The translations under genes were made by a program, and so were the position numbers. This document shows positions 1 to 20,211 of a DNA stretch of 64,000 bases, one piece after another. How positions within the stretch are numbered: the first letter of the stretch is position 1; each line of letters opens with the position of its first letter. The stretch lies in assembly GCF_003334315.1 (NCBI RefSeq), contig NZ_QOWR01000024.1; one strand, written 5' to 3'. Source of the DNA: Escherichia coli (GTDB taxonomy: Bacteria; Pseudomonadota; Gammaproteobacteria; Enterobacterales; Enterobacteriaceae). Below the pieces are notes generated by a model. It did no database searches and was not told the DNA's origin. It saw only the letters and a list, made by a program, of their open reading frames with translations.

Positions 1-258
1 TTATCGTGAGAGTAATTCATCGGCACGTTAAATCATATCAGGCGTAATACCACAACCCTTAAGTTAGCGCTTATGGGGTAAAACCCCGCGTACTGAATTG
101 TGATGGTTTGGTCTCCTGCACCCTTTTTTAATTTATATTGTTTATGTGAATATTATGCCTATGTTTATTATTCATATATATTACGGATGAAAATTATTTG
201 ATTATTCATAATGTAAATATTTTATTGAATGATATATATCACAGATAATTTTTAATAT
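1..258. promoter_or_regulatory. AT-rich region upstream of cas3, probable cas3 promoter and nucleoid-protein (H-NS-type) silencing target
   Basis: Bases 120-258 are very AT-rich (runs of tttatt/atatat) directly before the cas3 ATG at 259; AT-rich tracts are typical H-NS targets and cas promoters are known to be H-NS silenced in E. coli. Confidence 0.4.
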
Positions 259-2958
259 ATGCGTAAATATCCTTTAAGTTTACTGAAGGATAAAAATATT
301 GTGACTTTTTTTGATTTCTGGGGAAAAACCCGACGCGGCGAGAAAGACGGGGGCGACGACTATCACCTTCTTTGCTGGCATTCGCTGGATGTAGCCGCGA
401 TGGGCTATTTAATGGTTAAAAGAAATTGCTTCGGGCTGGCTGATTATTTTCGTCAATTAGGGATTTCTGACAAGGAACAGGCGGCTCAATTTTTCGCCTG
501 GTTGCTGTGCTGGCACGATATTGGAAAATTTGCCCGCTCTTTTCAACAACTTTACCTGCCCCCTGAACTCAAGATTCAGGAAGGTGCCAGAAAAAATTAC
601 GAAAAAATCTCTCATTCAACGCTGGGCTACTGGTTGTGGAATCATTATTTAAGTGAATGTCAGGAGTTACTTCCTTCATCTTCGCTCTCTCCGCGCAAAC
701 TTAGGCGAGTGATAGAAATGTGGATGCCCGTGACGACAGGGCATCATGGTCGGCCCCCTGATCGTATGGATGAATTGGATAATTTTCTGCCTGAAGACAA
801 AGCTGCAGCACGAGATTTTCTCCTTGAAATCAAACCACTGTTTCCGCTCATAGAGATCCCCGCATTCTGGGATGATGATGAGGGCATTGAACTTATAAAA
901 CACCTTTCCTGGTATATCTCTGCAACCGTCGTGCTCGCAGACTGGACGGGTTCGTCAACGCGATTTTTTCCACGCGTCGCACACCCAATGGATATTAAAG
1001 GTTACTGGCAGAAAACTTTAATTCAGGCTCAAAACGCCTTAACCGTCTTTCCTCTAAAAGCAAAAGTCGCGCCTTTCAACGGAATTAATACGCTGTTTCC
1101 TTTTATTGAGAATCCGACACCGTTACAGCAAAAGGTGCTGGATCTGGATATCAGCCAGCAAGGACCGCAGTTATTTATTCTGGAAGATGTGACTGGCGCA
1201 GGTAAAACAGAAGCGGCGCTTATCCTGGCGCACAGGTTGATAGCTGCGGGGAAAGCTCAGGGGCTGTTTTTTGGTCTGCCAACAATGGCAACGGCCAATG
1301 CCATGTACGATCGGCTGGTCAAAACCTGGCTTGCTTTCTATTCGCCAGAATCCCGCCCCAGCCTGGTGCTGGCACATAGTGCCCGCACATTAATGGACCG
1401 CTTTAATGAATCACTCTGGTCTGGTGATTTAGTCGGGTCAGAAGAACCGGATGAACAAACGTTCAGTCAGGGATGTGCGGCCTGGTTTGCCGACAGTAAC
1501 AAGAAGGCGTTGCTGGCTGAAATTGGCGTCGGCACGCTGGATCAGGCGATGATGGCGGTGATGCCGTTCAAACATAATAATCTGCGGCTTCTGGGGCTGA
1601 GTAACAAAATCCTGCTGGCTGATGAGATCCACGCCTGTGACGCTTACATGTCGTGCATTCTTGAAGGGTTGATCGAGCGGCAGGCGCGTGGCGGAAACAG
1701 CGTTATTTTGCTTTCTGCCACGTTATCTCAACAGCAGCGCGACAAACTCGTCGCTGCCTTTGCGCGGGGTACAGAGGGCCAGCAAGAAGCTCCGTTCCTG
1801 GAAAAGGATGATTACCCCTGGCTGACGCATGTCACGAAATCCGATGTGAACTCACACCGGGTAGCGACGCGCAAAGACGTTGAGCGTAGCGTCAGCGTGG
1901 GTTGGCTTCATAGTGAACAAGAGTGTATTGCGCGTATCGAATCGGCGGTAAGTCAGGGGAAATGCATCGCCTGGATCCGGAATTCTGTCGATGACGCTAT
2001 TAAGGTTCATCGTCAGCTGCTTGCCCGCGGCGTCATTCCTGCTTCCAGCCTTTCACTTTTTCATAGCCGCTTTGCTTTTAGCGATCGCCAGCGAATTGAA
2101 ACGGAAACGCTGGCACGCTTTGGTAAATATTGTAGTTTACAGAGAGCGTCGCAAGTCATTGTTTGTACACAAGTAATTGAGCAAAGCGTGGATATTGACC
2201 TGGACGAAATGATCTCCGACCTGGCCCCTGTTGATTTGCTGATTCAGCGAGCAGGACGATTACAGCGGCATATCCGCGATATTAATGGTCAGTTAAAGCG
2301 TGACGGAAAGGACGAGCGTTCCCCCCCTGAATTGCTGATTCTGGCTCCCGTCTGGGACGACTCTCCTGGCGACGAATGGTTTGGCAGTGCCATGCGTAAC
2401 AGTGCATTTGTCTATCCCGATCATGGGCGAATCTGGCTGACGCAGCGTGTGCTGCGTGAGCAAGGTGCTATTCAGATGCCACACGCAGCCCGGCTTCTTA
2501 TTGAATCCGTCTACGGTGAGGACGTGGTAATGCCGGAAGGATTTGCCCGCAGCGAGCAGGAGCAAGTGGGCAAATATTACTGTGATCGCGCAATGGCTAA
2601 AAAGTTTGTGCTGAACTTCAGGCCCGGCTATGCCGCCAATATCAACGATTACCTCCCGGAAAAACTGTCGACACGTCTGGCTGAGGAGTCTGTTTCCCTG
2701 TGGCTGGCTACCTGTATTGACGGTGTGGTGAAGCCTTATGCCACCGGTGCTCACGCATGGGAAATGAGCGTTGTCAGAGTGCGCCGAAGCTGGTGGAAAA
2801 AACATCGGGATGAGTTTTCTTTACTGGAGGGAGAGGCGTTCAGGCTGTGGTGCATTGAACAGCGACAAGATCCGGAGATGGCAAACGTGATTTTAGTCAA
2901 CGATGACGAAAGTTGCGGGTATTCGGCTACGGAAGGATTGATTGGCAAGGTTGGTTGA
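259..2958 (+). CDS. cas3: Cas3 HD-nuclease/SF2 helicase, type I-E (899 aa)
   Basis: N-terminal HD motifs (HLLCWHSLDVAAMG, CWHDIGKF), helicase Walker A (TGAGKTEAA) and DEIH box (LLADEIHACD); lies directly upstream of the Cascade genes. Confidence 0.93.
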   Translation: MRKYPLSLLKDKNIVTFFDFWGKTRRGEKDGGDDYHLLCWHSLDVAAMGYLMVKRNCFGLADYFRQLGISDKEQAAQFFAWLLCWHDIGKFARSFQQLYLPPELKIQEGARKNYEKISHSTLGYWLWNHYLSECQELLPSSSLSPRKLRRVIEMWMPVTTGHHGRPPDRMDELDNFLPEDKAAARDFLLEIKPLFPLIEIPAFWDDDEGIELIKHLSWYISATVVLADWTGSSTRFFPRVAHPMDIKGYWQKTLIQAQNALTVFPLKAKVAPFNGINTLFPFIENPTPLQQKVLDLDISQQGPQLFILEDVTGAGKTEAALILAHRLIAAGKAQGLFFGLPTMATANAMYDRLVKTWLAFYSPESRPSLVLAHSARTLMDRFNESLWSGDLVGSEEPDEQTFSQGCAAWFADSNKKALLAEIGVGTLDQAMMAVMPFKHNNLRLLGLSNKILLADEIHACDAYMSCILEGLIERQARGGNSVILLSATLSQQQRDKLVAAFARGTEGQQEAPFLEKDDYPWLTHVTKSDVNSHRVATRKDVERSVSVGWLHSEQECIARIESAVSQGKCIAWIRNSVDDAIKVHRQLLARGVIPASSLSLFHSRFAFSDRQRIETETLARFGKYCSLQRASQVIVCTQVIEQSVDIDLDEMISDLAPVDLLIQRAGRLQRHIRDINGQLKRDGKDERSPPELLILAPVWDDSPGDEWFGSAMRNSAFVYPDHGRIWLTQRVLREQGAIQMPHAARLLIESVYGEDVVMPEGFARSEQEQVGKYYCDRAMAKKFVLNFRPGYAANINDYLPEKLSTRLAEESVSLWLATCIDGVVKPYATGAHAWEMSVVRVRRSWWKKHRDEFSLLEGEAFRLWCIEQRQDPEMANVILVNDDESCGYSATEGLIGKVG

Positions 2959-3055
2959 GATGTCTGCGACAGGACTCTCTGAATAGTTGATACACCGAAA
3001 AGGATGGAAAGATGGACAACCGACCTGGGATGGTCTTTTTTACGAGAGGATGCGT

Positions 3056-4618
3056 ATGAACTCGTTTTCACTTCTGACAACCCCGTGGTTGCCCGTTCGT
3101 TTTAAAGACGGAACGACAGGCAAACTGGCGCCAGTCGATCTGGCGGATGAAAATGTTGTCGATATTTCTGCGCCGCGGGCAGATCTCCAGGGTGCGGTAT
3201 GGCAGTTTTTGCTGGGGCTACTACAAACCAGCTTCGCGCCAAAAGATCATCGTCGTTGGGATGATATCTGGGAAGACGGACTGGAAGCTGAAAAGCTACG
3301 GGAAGCATTGCAGTCATTAGAACATGCTTTCCAGTTTGGGCCAGATTCCCCTTCATTTATGCAGGATTTCGAGGCGCTCACCGGAGATAAAGTTCCGGTC
3401 GCTTCGCTACTGCCTGAGATTCCCGGCGCTCAAACAACGAAGTTTAATAAAGACCACTTTATCAAGCGTGGTGTAACGGAATACCTGTGCCCACATTGTT
3501 CTGCGTTAGCTCTGTTCTCCCTACAGTTGAATGCGCCGTCAGGTGGCAAAGGCTACCGCACCGGTTTACGCGGCGGTGGGCCGATGACCACTCTGATTGA
3601 ATTACAGGAATATCAGGGTAATCAACAAACTCCCTTGTGGCGCAAACTGTGGATCAATGTCATGCCGCAGGATGAAGCCGATTTACCGCTACCCAAAAAA
3701 TTTGACGATCTGGTTTTCCCCTGGCTTGGCCCGACGCGCACCAGCGAACTGGCCGGTGCGGTGGTAACCGATGAGCAGGTCAATAAACTCCAGGCGTACT
3801 GGGGAATGCCTCGCCGTATTCGTATTGATTTTAATACCACGACAGTCGGCAACTGCGATATTTGCGGTGAGCAGAGCGACGCGCTCCTGAGCCTGATGAC
3901 GACCAAAAATTACGGTGCGAATTATGCCATGTGGCAGCATCCCTTAACGCCTTACCGTGTACCACTTAAAGAGGGTGGCGAGTTTTACTCCGTTAAACCA
4001 CAACCGGGCGGTTTAATCTGGCGTGACTGGTTAGGCCTTATCGAAACGGGTAAATCAGAAAACAATACGGAACTTCCCGCGCTGGTGGTGAAACTCTTCA
4101 ATGCCAGCAGTCTCAAGCAGGCAAAAGTGGGCCTGTGGGGATTTGGCTATGATTTCGACAACATGAAAGCGCGCTGTTGGTACGAACACCATTTCCCGCT
4201 GCTGCTCGATAAAAAAGAAGGTCAGATACCGAAGCTGCGGCTGGCTGCGCAAACAGCTTCACGGATTCTAAGTCTGTTACGGAGTGCATTGAAAGAAGCA
4301 TGGTTCTCCGATCCAAAAGGTGCAAGGGGTGATTTTAGTTTTGTGGATATCGACTTCTGGAACAAAACTCAGCATCGCTTTCTGAGGTTAGTGCGCCAAA
4401 TTGAAGAAGGTCAGGATGCGGATGAATTACTCAGCAAATGGAATAAGGAAATTTGGTTATTCGCACGTCAGGATTTTGACGAGCGTGTATTCACCAATCC
4501 TTATGAGCCCGTTGATCTGGAACGCGTCATGACCGCGCGCAAGAAATATTTTACAACATCGGCGGAGAAGCAAAGTGCTAAAGCCGCCAGGGAGAAAAAG
4601 CAGGAGGCTGCTGAATGA
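3056..4618 (+). CDS. cse1: Cse1 (CasA) Cascade large subunit, about 520 aa
   Basis: First gene after cas3 in a I-E operon; start placed at MNSFSLLTTPWLPVRF by analogy with the CasA N-terminus (MNLLIDNWIPVRP) and a GAGG RBS at 3046-3049. The ORF track begins earlier at 2987, and an ATG at 3050 is an alternative. Confidence 0.8.
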   Translation: MNSFSLLTTPWLPVRFKDGTTGKLAPVDLADENVVDISAPRADLQGAVWQFLLGLLQTSFAPKDHRRWDDIWEDGLEAEKLREALQSLEHAFQFGPDSPSFMQDFEALTGDKVPVASLLPEIPGAQTTKFNKDHFIKRGVTEYLCPHCSALALFSLQLNAPSGGKGYRTGLRGGGPMTTLIELQEYQGNQQTPLWRKLWINVMPQDEADLPLPKKFDDLVFPWLGPTRTSELAGAVVTDEQVNKLQAYWGMPRRIRIDFNTTTVGNCDICGEQSDALLSLMTTKNYGANYAMWQHPLTPYRVPLKEGGEFYSVKPQPGGLIWRDWLGLIETGKSENNTELPALVVKLFNASSLKQAKVGLWGFGYDFDNMKARCWYEHHFPLLLDKKEGQIPKLRLAAQTASRILSLLRSALKEAWFSDPKGARGDFSFVDIDFWNKTQHRFLRLVRQIEEGQDADELLSKWNKEIWLFARQDFDERVFTNPYEPVDLERVMTARKKYFTTSAEKQSAKAAREKKQEAAE

Positions 4619-5151
4619 GTATTGTAAAAGAGGAGCACAAAGCCACGCTGCGCAAATGGCACGAGGAATTGCAGGAGAAACGTGGCGAACGTGCCAGTCT
4701 GCGGCGTAGTACGACGGTTAATGATGTTTGTCTGACGGATGGATTTCGCCTGTTTCTGAAGAACAGACAAATAAAGTGGCAGGATGAACCTGAGTGGCGT
4801 ATCACCGCACTGGCGCTGATAGCCGCAGTTAGCGCCAATGTTAAAGCTATTGATGAACGGCAGCCTTTTGCCGCGCAGCTGGCGGCGGTAATGTCAAAGG
4901 GGCGTTTTACTCGTCTGTCGGCAGTAAAAACACCGGATGAATTACTGCGCCAGTTACGCCGCGCAGTCAGATTATTAAACGGTTCCGTCAATCTTGACTC
5001 TCTGGCAGAGGGGGTCTTCCGTTGGTGCCAGGAGAGCGACGACCTGCTCAATCATCACCGCCGCCAGCAGCGGCCAACCGAATTTATCCGTATCCGCTGG
5101 GCGCTGGAATATTACCAGGCTGGCGACGCCGATAACGAACAAAATCAATAA
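4615..5151 (+). CDS. cse2: Cse2 (CasB) Cascade small subunit (178 aa)
   Basis: Small ORF in the Cse2 position; start overlaps the cse1 stop (ATGA-type coupling). Confidence 0.85.
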   Translation: MSIVKEEHKATLRKWHEELQEKRGERASLRRSTTVNDVCLTDGFRLFLKNRQIKWQDEPEWRITALALIAAVSANVKAIDERQPFAAQLAAVMSKGRFTRLSAVKTPDELLRQLRRAVRLLNGSVNLDSLAEGVFRWCQESDDLLNHHRRQQRPTEFIRIRWALEYYQAGDADNEQNQ

Positions 5152-5162
5152 AGGACTATCTC

Positions 5163-6218
5163 ATGACAACATTTATTCAGCTTCATTTGTTAACCGCTTA
5201 CCCTGCTGCCAACCTTAACCGTGATGATACCGGTGCGCCAAAAACTGTGGTGCTGGGTGGAGCAACGCGTCTGCGCGTTTCCTCGCAAAGTCTGAAATGT
5301 GCGTGGCGCACTTCTGCACTTTTTGAACAGGCACTGGCGGGCCATATTGGTATTCGCAGTGGGCGTATTGCGCGTGAGGCGGCAACTATCCTGATTGAGA
5401 AAGGAATCGAAGAGAAAAAAGCCATCGAATGGGCGGCAAAAATTGCAGATTATCTTGGGAAAGCTAAAAACGACAAAAAACCAAAAGATCCGCTCACTAA
5501 CGCCGAAACTGAACAGTTAGTCCATATCAGCCCGGCAGAATTTGACGCCGTAAAAGTGCTGGCCCATCAGCTTGCAGAAGAAAAGCGCGCGCCAAAAGAG
5601 GAAGATCTCGCGTTGTTACGCAAAGACCGTATGGCGGTAGATATTGCCATGTTTGGTCGTATGCTGGCGAATAAACCCGAGTTTAATGTTGAAGCCGCCT
5701 GCCAGGTAGCGCACGCATTTGGTGTCAGTGAAATGATTGTCGAAGATGATTTTTTCACCGCCGTTGATGATTTGCGCCAGGCTTCTGAAGATGCCGGTGC
5801 CGGGCATCTTGGTGAAACCGGATTCGGTTCTGCACTGTTCTACACCTATATCTGCATTGATAAAGATCTGCTGGTCGAAAACCTTGGCGGTGACGAAGCG
5901 TTAGCTAATCAGACCATACGTGCCTTTACGGAAGCCGCACTTAAAGTCTCCCCAACCGGCAAACAGAACAGCTTTGCCAGCCGTGCCTACGCCTCCTGGG
6001 CGCTGGCAGAAAAAGGCACCGATCAACCGCGTTCTCTGGCGGCAGCTTTCTATGAACCCATTAATGGCACCCGTCAGTTAGAGGTGGCGGTGCAGCGTAT
6101 TACAACTCTTCGCGAAAATATGAATACGGTCTACGAACAGAAGACCGATTACGCAAGTTTTGACGTGATGAACAAACAGGGAAGCATGAAGGACGTGCTG
6201 GACTTTATCTGCGCGTAA
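5163..6218 (+). CDS. cas7: Cas7e (CasC) Cascade backbone subunit (351 aa)
   Basis: N-terminus MTTFIQLHLLTAYPAANLNRDDTGAPK matches the Cas7e/CasC N-terminal signature (HLL..YP..NLNRDDTG) and the gene is in the expected position. Confidence 0.9.
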   Translation: MTTFIQLHLLTAYPAANLNRDDTGAPKTVVLGGATRLRVSSQSLKCAWRTSALFEQALAGHIGIRSGRIAREAATILIEKGIEEKKAIEWAAKIADYLGKAKNDKKPKDPLTNAETEQLVHISPAEFDAVKVLAHQLAEEKRAPKEEDLALLRKDRMAVDIAMFGRMLANKPEFNVEAACQVAHAFGVSEMIVEDDFFTAVDDLRQASEDAGAGHLGETGFGSALFYTYICIDKDLLVENLGGDEALANQTIRAFTEAALKVSPTGKQNSFASRAYASWALAEKGTDQPRSLAAAFYEPINGTRQLEVAVQRITTLRENMNTVYEQKTDYASFDVMNKQGSMKDVLDFICA

Positions 6219-6228
6219 GGGGCGGCTT

Positions 6229-6975
6229 ATGAGCCAATATCTGATTTTTCAGCTTCATGGGCCGATGGCGTCCTGGGGTGTCGATGCTCCAGGTGAAGTT
6301 CGTCATACCCATGAACTTCCTTCGCGCTCAGCATTGCTGGGGCTACTGGCTGCCGGGGTAGGGATTCGGCGTGATGATACCGAACGCTTAAACGCGTTTA
6401 ATCGCCACTATTCACTGGTGGTTTGCGCCAGCCGTAACCCGCGCTGGGCACGGGATTATCACACGGTCCAGATGCCAAAAGAGGTGCGTAAAGCACGTTA
6501 TTTCAGCCGTCGCGAAGAGTTGAGCGACCCTGAGCTTTTGAGCGCGATTATCTCCCGGCGCGACTACTACACCGATGCCTGGTGGATGGTGGCGGTGGCA
6601 ACAACCCCCGATGCGCCTTACAGCCTCGAACAGTTGCAGGACGGTTTACGCCATCCGGTTTTTCCGCTTTATCTGGGGCGAAAAAGTCATCCGCTGGCGT
6701 TACCACTTGCGCCGTTACTGCTCGAAGGCAACGCGTCTGATGTCTTACGTAACGCATACCAACAGTATCAGGATCGTTTCCGCGAACTGAAAGTCTCACT
6801 CCCGAAACTTCAGGATGAATGCTGGTGGGAAGGGGAGCACGATGGTTTGGTCGCAAGCAAAATATTACGCCGCCGGGATGTTCCTTTAAATCGTCAGCAG
6901 TGGCTGTTTGGGGAACGCACCATCAATCAGGGGCCGTGGCTCAGCAAGGAGGAACCATGTACCTCTCAAGAATAA
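6229..6975 (+). CDS. cas5: Cas5e (CasD) Cascade subunit (248 aa)
   Basis: N-terminus MSQYLIFQLHGPMASWG resembles the Cas5e signature (MRSYLILRLAGPMQAWG); 3' end overlaps the cas6e start by 19 nt. Confidence 0.9.
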   Translation: MSQYLIFQLHGPMASWGVDAPGEVRHTHELPSRSALLGLLAAGVGIRRDDTERLNAFNRHYSLVVCASRNPRWARDYHTVQMPKEVRKARYFSRREELSDPELLSAIISRRDYYTDAWWMVAVATTPDAPYSLEQLQDGLRHPVFPLYLGRKSHPLALPLAPLLLEGNASDVLRNAYQQYQDRFRELKVSLPKLQDECWWEGEHDGLVASKILRRRDVPLNRQQWLFGERTINQGPWLSKEEPCTSQE

Positions 6976-7603
6976 CCTTACATACCGGCCAGCTTTCGCC
7001 TGCGCAGTTGCTGCATCTGGTGGATCGCGGTGAATATGTGATGCATCAGTGGTTGTGGGATCTCTTCCCTGGCGGCAAAGAAAGGCAATTTCTTTATCGT
7101 CGGGAAGAACTCCAGGGCGCGTTTCGCTTTTTTGTCCTCTCGCAGGAACGCCCGGCAGAAAGTGAAACTTTCACCATCGAATGCCGGTCATTTACGCCCG
7201 AGCTGAGTACCGGACAACAACTTTGTTTCAACCTGCGGGCGAATCCAACAATCTGTAAAGCGGGCAAGCGCCACGATCTGCTGATGGAGGCGAAACGGCA
7301 GGTGAGGGGACAGGCGGAAGGAAGTGATGTCTGGTTGCATCAACAACAGGCGGCGCTGGACTGGCTGGCAGCGCAGGGGGAAAGAAGTGGTTTTACACTA
7401 CTGGATACCTCGGTTGATGCCTACCGACAACAACAACTCCGGCGGGAAAACTCCTGGCAACTGATCCAGTTCAGTAGTGTGGATTATACGGGGATGCTTA
7501 CGGTCACCGATCCTGGGTTATTTCTGCAACGTCTCAGTCAGGGGTATGGCAAAAGCCGGGCGTTCGGTTGTGGTCTGATGCTGATCAAACCTGGAGCAGA
7601 GGC

Positions 7604-7607
<4 letters not shown>
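6957..7607 (+). CDS. cas6e: Cas6e (CasE) pre-crRNA endoribonuclease (216 aa)
   Basis: Start placed at the internal ATG at 6957 (MYLSRITLHTG), matching the CasE N-terminus MYLS; C-terminal GCGLM motif. The ORF track start at 6819 is an artificial 5' extension. Confidence 0.88.
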
Positions 7608-8817
<1,210 letters not shown>

Positions 8818-8912: not shown

Positions 8913-9429
8913 GTGTTCCCCGCGCCAGCGGGGATAAACCGGAGCGTAGAGATTCTCGAAACCGATCCGGACGGTGTTCCCCGCGCCAGCGGGGATAAAC
9001 CGAATAAATAATAATCCAGTAGCCCCATGTATTAGTGTTCCCCGCGCCAGCGGGTATAAACCGGTAATAAAAAATATTCTATTTCTGCTGAATCAGTGTT
9101 CCCCGCGCCAGCGGGGATAAACCGCTTGCGAGCAAAAGATCCAGGCCGAGAAAGACGTGTTCCCCGCGCCAGCGGGGATAAACCGCGATAACCGCGTCAG
9201 TATTGGACAGGATATCAGTGTTCCCCGCGCCAGCGGGGATAAACCGAATCTATTGTGAATTTGAAATGGTCCAGCACTGTGTTCCCCGCGCCAGCGGGGA
9301 TAAACCGGGTAAAAACACGGTCTGAACCGACATTCATGTGTGTTCCCCGCGTCAGCGGGGATAAACCGGGCGCACTGGATGCGATGATGGATATCACTTG
9401 GAGTTCCCCGCCCCTGCGGTAGAACTCCC
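8913..9429 (+). CRISPR. Type I-E CRISPR array: 9 repeats of 29 bp (last one degenerate) and 8 spacers of 32 bp
   Basis: Repeat GTGTTCCCCGCGCCAGCGGGGATAAACCG at 8913, 8974, 9035, 9096, 9157, 9218, 9279, 9340 with a strict 61-bp period; repeat 3 has GGGTATAAACC, repeat 8 has GCGTCAGC; terminal degenerate repeat GAGTTCCCCGCCCCTGCGGTAGAACTCCC at 9401-9429. Spacers at 8942-8973, 9003-9034, 9064-9095, 9125-9156, 9186-9217, 9247-9278, 9308-9339, 9369-9400. Confidence 0.97.
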
Positions 9430-18175: not shown

Positions 18176-18313
18176 AACGTGAGGAAATACCTGGATTTTT
18201 CCTGGTTATTTTGCCGCAGGTCAGCGTATCGTGAACATCTTTTCCAGTGTTCAGTAGGGTGCCTTGCACGGTAATTATGTCACTGGTTATTAACCAATTT
18301 TCCTGGGGGATAA

Positions 18314-19453
18314 ATGAGCGCGGGAAGCCCAAAATTCACCGTTCGCCGCATTGCGGCTTTGTCACTGGTTTCGCTATGGCTGGCAGGCTGTTCTGACACT
18401 TCAAATCCACCGGCACCGGTCAGCTCCGTTAATGGCAATGCGCCTGCAAATACCAATTCTGGTATGTTGATTACGCCGCCGCCGAAAATGGGGACGACGT
18501 CTACAGCCCAGCAACCGCAAATTCAGCCGGTACAGCAGCCACAAATTCAGGCTACTCAACAACCGCAAATCCAGCCAGTGCAGCCAGTAGCTCAGCAGCC
18601 GGTACAGATGGAAAACGGACGCATCGTCTATAACCGTCAGTATGGGAACATTCCGAAAGGCAGTTATAGCGGCAGTACCTATACCGTGAAAAAAGGCGAC
18701 ACACTTTTCTATATCGCCTGGATTACTGGTAACGATTTCCGTGACCTTGCTCAGCGCAACAATATTCAGGCACCATACGCGCTGAACGTTGGTCAGACCT
18801 TGCAGGTGGGTAATGCTTCCGGTACGCCAATCACTGGCGGAAATGCCATTACCCAGGCCGACGCAGCAGAGCAAGGAGTTGTGATCAAGCCTGCACAAAA
18901 TTCCACCGTTGCTGTTGCGTCGCAACCGACAATTACGTATTCTGAATCTTCGGGTGAACAGAGTGCTAACAAAATGTTGCCGAACAACAAGCCAGCTGCG
19001 ACCACGGTCACAGCGCCTGTAACGGTACCAACAGCAAGCACAACCGAGCCAACTGTCAGCAGTACATCAACCAGTACGCCTATCTCCACCTGGCGCTGGC
19101 CGACTGAGGGCAAAGTGATCGAAACCTTTGGCGCTTCTGAGGGGGGCAACAAGGGGATTGATATCGCAGGCAGCAAAGGACAGGCAATTATCGCGACCGC
19201 AGATGGCCGCGTTGTTTATGCTGGTAACGCGCTGCGCGGCTACGGTAATCTGATTATCATCAAACATAATGATGATTACCTGAGTGCCTACGCCCATAAC
19301 GACACAATGCTGGTCCGGGAACAACAAGAAGTGAAGGCGGGGCAAAAAATAGCAACCATGGGTAGCACCGGAACCAGTTCAACACGCTTGCATTTTGAAA
19401 TTCGTTACAAGGGGAAATCCGTAAACCCGCTGCGTTATTTGCCGCAGCGATAA
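18314..19453 (+). CDS. nlpD: Lipoprotein NlpD, LysM/M23-peptidase-family divisome amidase activator (379 aa)
   Basis: Lipobox (LAGCS), Q/P-rich repeats, LysM segment and C-terminal M23-like domain; contains the rpoS promoter region in E. coli. Confidence 0.93.
18509..18575 (+). repeat. In-frame tandem repeat inside nlpD encoding (QQPQIQ) x3
   Basis: Three near-identical units of about 21-24 bp (cagcaaccgcaaattcagccggta / cagcagccacaaattcaggct / caacaaccgcaaatccagcca). Confidence 0.7.
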
Positions 19454-19515: not shown

Positions 19516-20154
19516 ATGAGTCAGAATACGCTGAAAGTTCATGATTTAAATGAAGATGCGGAATTTGATGAGAACGGAGTTGAGGTTTTTGACGAAAAGG
19601 CCTTAGTAGAAGAGGAACCCAGTGATAACGATTTGGCCGAAGAGGAACTGTTATCGCAGGGAGCCACACAGCGTGTGTTGGACGCGACTCAGCTTTACCT
19701 TGGTGAGATTGGTTATTCACCACTGTTAACGGCCGAAGAAGAAGTTTATTTTGCGCGTCGCGCACTGCGTGGAGATGTCGCCTCTCGCCGCCGGATGATC
19801 GAGAGTAACTTGCGTCTGGTGGTAAAAATTGCCCGCCGTTATGGCAATCGTGGTCTGGCGTTGCTGGACATCCTGGCCGATGAAAAAGAGAACGGTCCGG
19901 AAGATACCACGCAAGATGACGATATGAAGCAGAGCATCGTCAAATGGCTGTTCGAGCTGAACGCCAAACAGCGTGAAGTGCTGGCACGTCGATTCGGTTT
20001 GCTGGGGTACGAAGCGGCAACACTGGAAGATGTAGGTCGTGAAATTGGCCTCACCCGTGAACGTGTTCGCCAGATTCAGGTTGAAGGCCTGCGCCGTTTG
20101 CGCGAAATCCTGCAAACGCAGGGGCTGAATATCGAAGCGCTGTTCCGCGAGTAA
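19516..20154 (+). CDS. rpoS: RpoS (sigma-S/sigma-38) allele with an in-frame internal deletion: 212 aa instead of about 330
   Basis: N-terminal ([14 protein letters not shown]...[12 protein letters not shown]) and C-terminal ([13 protein letters not shown]...[10 protein letters not shown]) parts match RpoS, but the central part (regions 2.2-3) is absent; junction at the direct-repeat sequence GCGTTGCTGGAC (19858-19869). Confidence 0.85.
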
Positions 20155-20171
20155 GTAAGCATCTGTCAGAA

Positions 20172-20200
20172 AGGCCAGTCTCAAGCGAGGCTGGCCTTTT
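20172..20200 (+). terminator. Rho-independent terminator downstream of rpoS
   Basis: GC-rich imperfect hairpin (ggccagtctc...gaggctggcc) followed by TTTT. Confidence 0.7.
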
Positions 20201-20211
20201 CTGTGCACAAT

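Follow-up and report, generated by a model that had tools for sequence, protein, structure and literature searches.

In the 64,000-nucleotide stretch of Escherichia coli DNA analysed here (hereafter the window), rpoS has lost 354 bp of its interior in frame, and we consider it very likely that the result is a loss-of-function allele generated by misalignment of two 12-bp direct repeats, recurrent in E. coli and recent in the present lineage. The gene is known to be polymorphic, with natural null alleles (PMC3074542, PMC7527412). The allele described here is neither unique nor new, as it is present in the databases and has very probably been met in the literature before.

Structure of the rpoS allele

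The gene was identified as rpoS by nlpD lying upstream and by the 100% identity of the retained 639 bp to rpoS; its start ATG is the one used by RefSeq for the identical allele in strain 3059. We took the rpoS gene of strain 720632 (L001:1617-2609; 993 bp, 330 aa) as the intact reference. Aligned with it, the window gene shows a single 354-bp gap and zero mismatches in the rest, and removal of nt 343-696 from the reference in silico reproduces the window allele exactly. The 212-aa product corresponds to sigma-S without residues 119-236, with a predicted mass of 24.3 kDa, compared with 38.0 kDa for the full-length protein.

Within intact rpoS, the 12-mer GCGTTGCTGGAC is found at nt 343-354 and again at nt 697-708, a spacing of 354 that equals the length of the deletion. 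The match between the copies ends at exactly 12 bp, since their flanking bases differ on either side. The pattern expected of a deletion between short direct repeats is therefore present in full: exact repeats at both ends of the parental segment, one copy left behind, and a deletion as long as the spacing. Both copies encode Ala-Leu-Leu-Asp (ALLD) with the same codons, at residues 115-118 and 233-236. Owing to this duplication the fusion may be written as residues 1-118 joined to 237-330 (94 aa) or, equivalently, as 1-114 joined to 233-330. The initial annotation had proposed an in-frame deletion of about 354 bp whose junction sits on a 12-bp direct repeat, had numbered the fusion as residues 1-118 followed by the C-terminal 94 residues with the second repeat-encoded stretch near residue 233, and had suggested alignment to a reference as the check; the alignment, with its one gap bounded by the 12-bp repeat, agrees with that description on every point.

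Domain content and predicted effect of the deletion

Of the 70 residues in region 2, 45 are lost, and of the 75 in region 3, 63 (Table 1). Of the features of a functional RpoS, regions 1.2 and 4 are present, and a complete region 2 and region 3 are missing; by subregion, the 212-aa product is without regions 2.2-2.4, 3.0, 3.1 and most of 3.2. The Pfam matches support the earlier statement that regions 2.2 to 3 are lost, with the qualification that a remnant of region 2.1 and the end of region 3.2 are kept.

In sigma factors of the sigma-70 family, regions 2.2-2.4 make the main contact with the beta-prime clamp helices and serve in -10 recognition and melting, and region 3.2 threads towards the active site. 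Residue K173 of sigma-S, which RssB requires for delivery of the protein to ClpXP, falls within the deleted segment. Because the core-binding, melting and -10 regions are gone, the 212-aa product should be unable to direct transcription as a sigma factor, and the strain would be expected to behave as an rpoS null although rpoS, its promoter and leader are in other respects intact. The general stress response (catalase HPII, acid and osmotic resistance, glycogen and curli) is predicted to be lost, and nutrient scavenging to improve. Structures of the sigma-S holoenzyme have been solved (for example 5IPL, 6OMF and 6KJ6), and D118, the last residue of the repeat-encoded ALLD motif, lies in the conserved core-binding region (PMC7845604).

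Table 1. Features of the rpoS locus in the window (nucleotide positions) and Pfam domains of the full-length and window RpoS proteins (residue positions)
Feature	Position	Strand	Remarks
nlpD, upstream of rpoS	18314..19453	+	ORF; annotated as nlpD in relatives; unchanged relative to strain DAM
rpoS deletion allele	19516..20154	+	639 bp including stop, 212 aa; ORF and translation
Retained 5' part, codons 1-114	19516..19857	+	N-terminal acidic region, region 1.2, start of region 2 (2.1)
Deletion junction	19858..19869	+	Sole surviving copy of GCGTTGCTGGAC, encodes A-L-L-D; BLAST segments against strain DAM overlap exactly there
Retained 3' part, codons 237-330 and stop	19870..20154	+	End of region 3.2, all of region 4 (4.1, 4.2 helix-turn-helix)
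GC-rich hairpin, then T-run, after the rpoS stop	20170..20204	+	AAAGGCCAGTCTC-AAGC-GAGGCTGGCCTTT, then TCTGT; read from the sequence
Sigma70_r1_2 (PF00140)	56-88 full-length; 56-88 window protein		E = 8e-12 in the window protein
Sigma70_r2 (PF04542), full-length	94-163		Model positions 1-70, E = 8e-23
Sigma70_r2 remnant, window protein	94-120		Model positions 1-27 of 71, E = 0.025
Sigma70_r3 (PF04539)	174-248 full-length		E = 6e-21; no match in the 212-aa protein
Sigma70_r4 (PF04545)	262-315 full-length = 144-197 window protein		E = 3e-15 in the window protein

Evidence for a derived and recent state

We compared the region around rpoS with 5,426 complete E. coli genomes. Of these, 5,393 matched the query over 80% or more of its length, and the best 30 of these 5,393 matches all came in two pieces, with a span 354 bp longer than the query. 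A second screen, whose E-value cut-off could be passed by a contiguous junction only, returned one of the 5,426 genomes, that of strain 3059 (NZ_CP103559), a blood isolate from Houston. The extra 354 bp in these best matches and the single complete genome with the junction mark the short form as derived and as the native length of no lineage; the possibility that 212 aa is simply the normal length in this lineage, which had been raised at the outset, is thereby ruled out.

The closest complete genome, that of strain DAM, encodes an intact RpoS of 330 aa. It is collinear with the window over the full 64 kb and differs by 17 SNPs, two 1-bp indels and the 354-bp deletion. Between positions 18299 and 22143 the deletion is the sole difference, which leaves nlpD, the leader of rpoS and the terminator unaltered. 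That so near a relative retains an intact rpoS points to a very recent deletion in the lineage of the window, and its occurrence in one of 5,426 complete genomes is as expected for short-lived mutations at the tips of the tree.

Recurrence of the junction across lineages

The identical 212-aa protein is deposited as WP_064562037.1, on 32 contigs in the protein collection and in 54 blocks of the gene index, counts that mix independent events with clonal copies and are not counts of independent events. The NCBI pipeline names it 'sigma factor-like helix-turn-helix DNA-binding protein'. At least 24 contigs were read, and they fall into four rpoS-mutS arrangements. In the first, shared by the window, ygbN directly follows rpoS (L003 and 3 further similar contigs). 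In the second, marR, decarboxylase BCD and ygbN follow (L004, L005, L007, L008 and 5 further similar contigs); in the third, of O157:H7 type, the order is marR, decarboxylase BCD, phosphatase and mutS (L006 and 7 further similar contigs); and in the fourth, of B2 type, it is flavodoxin, MBL hydrolase and ygbN (L009, L010 and 1 further similar contig). The window itself matches contig DABDHO010000020.1 of GCA_012773515.1 without a difference over 12,639 bp.

The carriers are diverse in sequence. Eight representative loci differ pairwise by 14-155 SNPs in a common 6.6 kb, and the nucleotide sequence of the deleted allele occurs in five or more haplotypes, which differ synonymously both before and after the junction. 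The single complete carrier, strain 3059, encodes the same 212-aa sequence (L002:2687-3325) and has the same 71-bp junction as the window, but it differs in having a MarR regulator and a hydroxyarylic acid decarboxylase island between rpoS and ygbN, in 66 SNPs in the 6.6-kb flank and in 22 mismatches in 3.3 kb.

Several carriers also have near-identical relatives in which rpoS is intact. Over 12.6 kb, L004 is matched with 100% identity, except for the extra 354 bp, by a set of complete genomes that includes CFSAN061768, L006 by O157:H7 strains, and L009 by the O18:H1 strain CFSAN067215, with ABU 83972 at 99.9%. The identical junction thus recurs in L004, L006, L009 and the window, each with its own near-identical intact-rpoS relatives. 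Much the most economical reading is that the 354-bp deletion arose independently in several E. coli lineages.

A census of direct repeats in rpoS

The 12-mer is the longest direct repeat in rpoS, followed by two 10-mers and four 9-mers. The presence of such a repeat is in itself unremarkable, since 24 of 300 codon shuffles of the gene contain one of at least 12 bp. Among the 16 repeat pairs of at least 8 bp, 11 are in frame; for each of these 11 we predicted the product of a deletion between the repeats and looked it up by exact protein sequence (Table 2). Ten control deletions kept these sizes but were displaced by 30 nt, with at most 2 bp of microhomology.

Table 2. Predicted products of in-frame deletions between direct repeats of rpoS and their occurrence on record
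Deletion	Repeat	Product	Contigs
354 bp	12 bp	212 aa	32
273 bp	10 bp	239 aa	8
30 bp	10 bp	320 aa	2
456 bp	9 bp	178 aa	1
96 bp	9 bp	298 aa	190
585 bp	8 bp	135 aa	1
216 bp	8 bp	258 aa	1
654 bp	8 bp	112 aa	1
612 bp	8 bp	126 aa	absent
237 bp	8 bp	251 aa	absent
672 bp	8 bp	106 aa	absent

Eight of the 11 repeat-flanked products are on record, and exact look-up of the shifted control products found none of the ten (Fisher p = 0.001). The difference persists when the 354-bp allele is left out (7 of the 10 other pairs, with repeats of 8-10 bp, versus 0 of 10; Fisher p = 0.003). This bias indicates that the in-frame rpoS deletions on record are overwhelmingly repeat-mediated and that the 354-bp allele is one predictable member of the class. 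Together with the recurrence of the junction in unrelated backgrounds, it lends support to the repeat-mediated origin that had been proposed from the window alone. Repeat length is not the sole factor: the 96-bp deletion between 9-bp repeats, on 190 contigs, outranks the allele of the 12-bp repeat, on 32, and distance, clonal spread or residual function also matter.

The 298-aa product of that 96-bp deletion is 32 residues shorter than RpoS and arises by loss of nt 120-215 between 9-bp GGCCGAAGA repeats at nt 120 and 216. It loses part of the N-terminal region and of region 1.2, its 190 contigs are the most for any in-frame deletion tested, and the names attached to it include 'MULTISPECIES ... 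Enterobacteriaceae' and O157:H7; the allele may be clonal, or it may keep part of its function. Salmonella enterica proteins of equal length fall into the 90%-identity clusters of the 258-aa and 112-aa deletion products (P0052 and P0018). This cluster membership, with the repeats in Salmonella unchecked, suggests that similar rpoS deletions also occur there.

On the mechanism, the two identical 12-bp repeats, 354 bp apart, would misalign, the intervening DNA would be deleted, and one copy would be left at the junction. The likeliest route would be RecA-independent replication slippage, since 12 bp falls short of the roughly 23-27 bp that RecA-dependent recombination requires to be efficient, although single-strand annealing or some other short-homology route would leave the same signature. 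The segment between the repeats is predicted to fold slightly better than shuffled sequences (z = -2.35), with no clear stem joining the repeats, and no strong inverted repeats flanking the 12-bp repeats were found. The in-frame outcome is a side effect of both repeats encoding Ala-Leu-Leu-Asp with the same codons. Recurrence may in turn reflect the coincidence of the longest repeat in the gene with conditions that favour rpoS nulls, namely nutrient limitation, some infections and laboratory storage.

Alternative explanations

The source of the window is a draft assembly, and the gap might in principle be a collapse at the 12-bp repeat in a genome whose rpoS is full-length. Short-read assemblers typically use k-mers longer than 12 bp, with which the two repeat contexts should stay distinct. 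At least 24 contigs, read from separate assemblies, share the junction, as does the complete genome NZ_CP103559, and 5,425 of the 5,426 complete genomes, which contain the same repeats, lack it; in ECOR6, moreover, a 354-bp rpoS deletion was found by PCR and sequencing (PMC4209514). We therefore regard an assembly collapse as a negligible prospect. A single deletion that then spread between lineages by homologous recombination would fit the standing of the mutS-rpoS region as a recognised recombination hotspot in E. coli (PMC4209514) and the identical 639-bp allele common to L003, L005 and L007. Against such spread, the 12.6-kb loci of L004, L006 and L009 are each 100% identical to intact relatives of their own lineage except for the 354 bp; L009 keeps lineage-specific synonymous sites at allele positions 264 and 378, which would confine an imported tract to less than about 114 bp around the junction; and no longer imported haplotype block foreign to the carriers' own clade was seen. 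Spread from one event is thus highly improbable, and independent recurrence is the reading that we follow.

A further alternative accepts the deletion and asks whether the 212-aa product is a neomorph, that is, a stable fragment of region 1.2-2.1 plus region 4 with regulatory activity, whose recurrence would reflect selection for that activity in addition to a mutational hotspot. Such a fragment might occupy or compete at the beta-flap or the -35 element, or it might titrate sigma-S partners. Region 4, the ClpX-recognised N-terminus and the reading frame are all preserved, the RssB determinant K173 is removed, and, as in-frame deletions on record go, the allele is one of the more frequent. The in-frame status, however, is explained by the same four codons being used twice, in a gene where most of the longer repeat pairs are in frame (11 of the 16 counted above); the allele is outnumbered by truncated rpoS products of 160 aa (112 contigs) and 162 aa (69 contigs); the single carrier among 5,426 complete genomes gives no sign of long-term persistence or clonal expansion; and loss of most of domain 2 probably destabilises the remaining helix. 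A selected new function is accordingly quite unlikely, and we retain the simple loss of function. The setting of the event is less clear-cut. That the deletion is genuine but arose or was enriched during laboratory storage or subculture, and not in a natural host, is a possibility to be taken seriously, if a somewhat doubtful one; it concerns where the event happened and is compatible with slippage, leaving the mechanism unchanged. Nutrient limitation favours rpoS alleles that have lost their function, and such alleles build up with laboratory handling (review PMC7527412); in the passage of that review that cites Bleibtreu et al. 2014, rpoS is said to be inactivated predominantly during laboratory storage. 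The carriers look like tip mutations with intact, near-identical relatives, and ECOR6, reported with a 354-bp rpoS deletion, is a long-stored collection strain (PMC4209514). On the other side, rpoS mutations, loss-of-function alleles included, arise and converge within patients during extraintestinal infection (PMC7845604), and one carrier, strain 3059, is a blood isolate; the sequence itself carries nothing that separates host or environment from laboratory.

Neighbouring genes and the remainder of the window

In the window the gene order is nlpD, rpoS and then directly ygbN. Within nlpD lie the principal promoter of rpoS and the larger part of its long leader. The hairpin downstream of the rpoS stop (Table 1) is identical in relatives and is likely to be an intact intrinsic terminator; a simple consensus terminator scan made no call at this position, where the hairpin is visible by eye only. 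The mutS gene is an intact ORF of 853 aa with no difference from strain DAM within the gene, and a mutS mutator background is not indicated.

One of the two 1-bp indels relative to DAM lies at 18298, between pcm and nlpD and upstream of the start annotated for nlpD; a sequencing difference in a homopolymer may account for it. As judged by alignment to DAM, positions 1-20 of the window belong to the end of an IS4-like IS421 transposase gene, just upstream of cas3. The window further contains a complete type I-E CRISPR-Cas system (cas3, casA-E, cas1e and cas2e; cas3 to cas2 at about 259-8817) with an array at about 8913-9368 beside iap. Tandem Repeats Finder reported no more than 2.5 copies of the 61-bp repeat-plus-spacer unit (8974-9124), and the remaining array coordinates were transferred from the DAM annotation. 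The array differs from that of DAM by one SNP (9055), and a 1-bp indel relative to DAM precedes it just upstream (8891).

Relation to known rpoS alleles

In the literature covered, a 354-bp rpoS deletion appears in one mention, for ECOR6, and no account of a repeat mechanism or of recurrence was found. The mention is made in passing and gives neither mechanism nor recurrence: '354 bp-deletion ... (position 298 to 651 bp)' (Ewers et al. 2014, PMC4209514). ECOR6 and the window are alike in deletion size, gene and K-12-type rpoS-ygbN arrangement and unlike in coordinates, the published ones being offset by 45 nt from nt 343-696. Taken literally, a deletion of nt 298-651 does not give the window allele; probably it is the same event, numbered differently. 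An imperfect match of 7 out of 9 between TAACTTGCG and TAACGAGCG, at rpoS nt 291-299 and 645-653 (L001), also has a 354-bp spacing, and its position near the ECOR6 coordinates 298-651 is probably coincidental.

Other rpoS alleles on record include K-12 rpoS396(Am) (PMC4444293), the frameshift, amber and 28-nt deletion alleles of the ECOR collection (PMC3074542) and the five-residue in-frame deletion rpoS* of Salmonella 14028s (PMC4223078); those in PMC4759930, PMC9144400 and PMC7845604 are likewise other than the 354-bp deletion. The K-12, ECOR and 14028s alleles share with the present one that they are derived, lineage-tip changes reducing or abolishing sigma-S activity, as is predicted here. 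They are point mutations, frameshifts and small deletions, whereas the 354-bp allele removes 118 residues across two domains, is tied to a defined repeat pair and recurs with an identical junction. Deletion hotspots in lacI and RecA-independent deletion between short direct repeats have reportedly been described, by Albertini et al. in 1982 and by Bzymek and Lovett in 2001. Like those deletions, the rpoS event involves exact short repeats, keeps one copy and has the longest repeat as its recurrent hotspot; it differs in that for rpoS we infer the mechanism from the sequence signature.

Implications

The recurrence and the repeat census add some value to what is known of this allele, and they leave the understanding of rpoS biology unchanged. 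In practice, surveys by gene name would miss the allele or count rpoS as absent, owing to the name given by the NCBI pipeline; the junction-specific 71-mer or the 212-aa sequence could be used to screen genome collections instead. The allele is also relevant to reading strain phenotype or fitness in food and clinical settings. For the species as a whole, the spectrum of rpoS null alleles has, on these results, a deterministic part, in which the longest internal repeats regenerate the same deletions across phylogroups.
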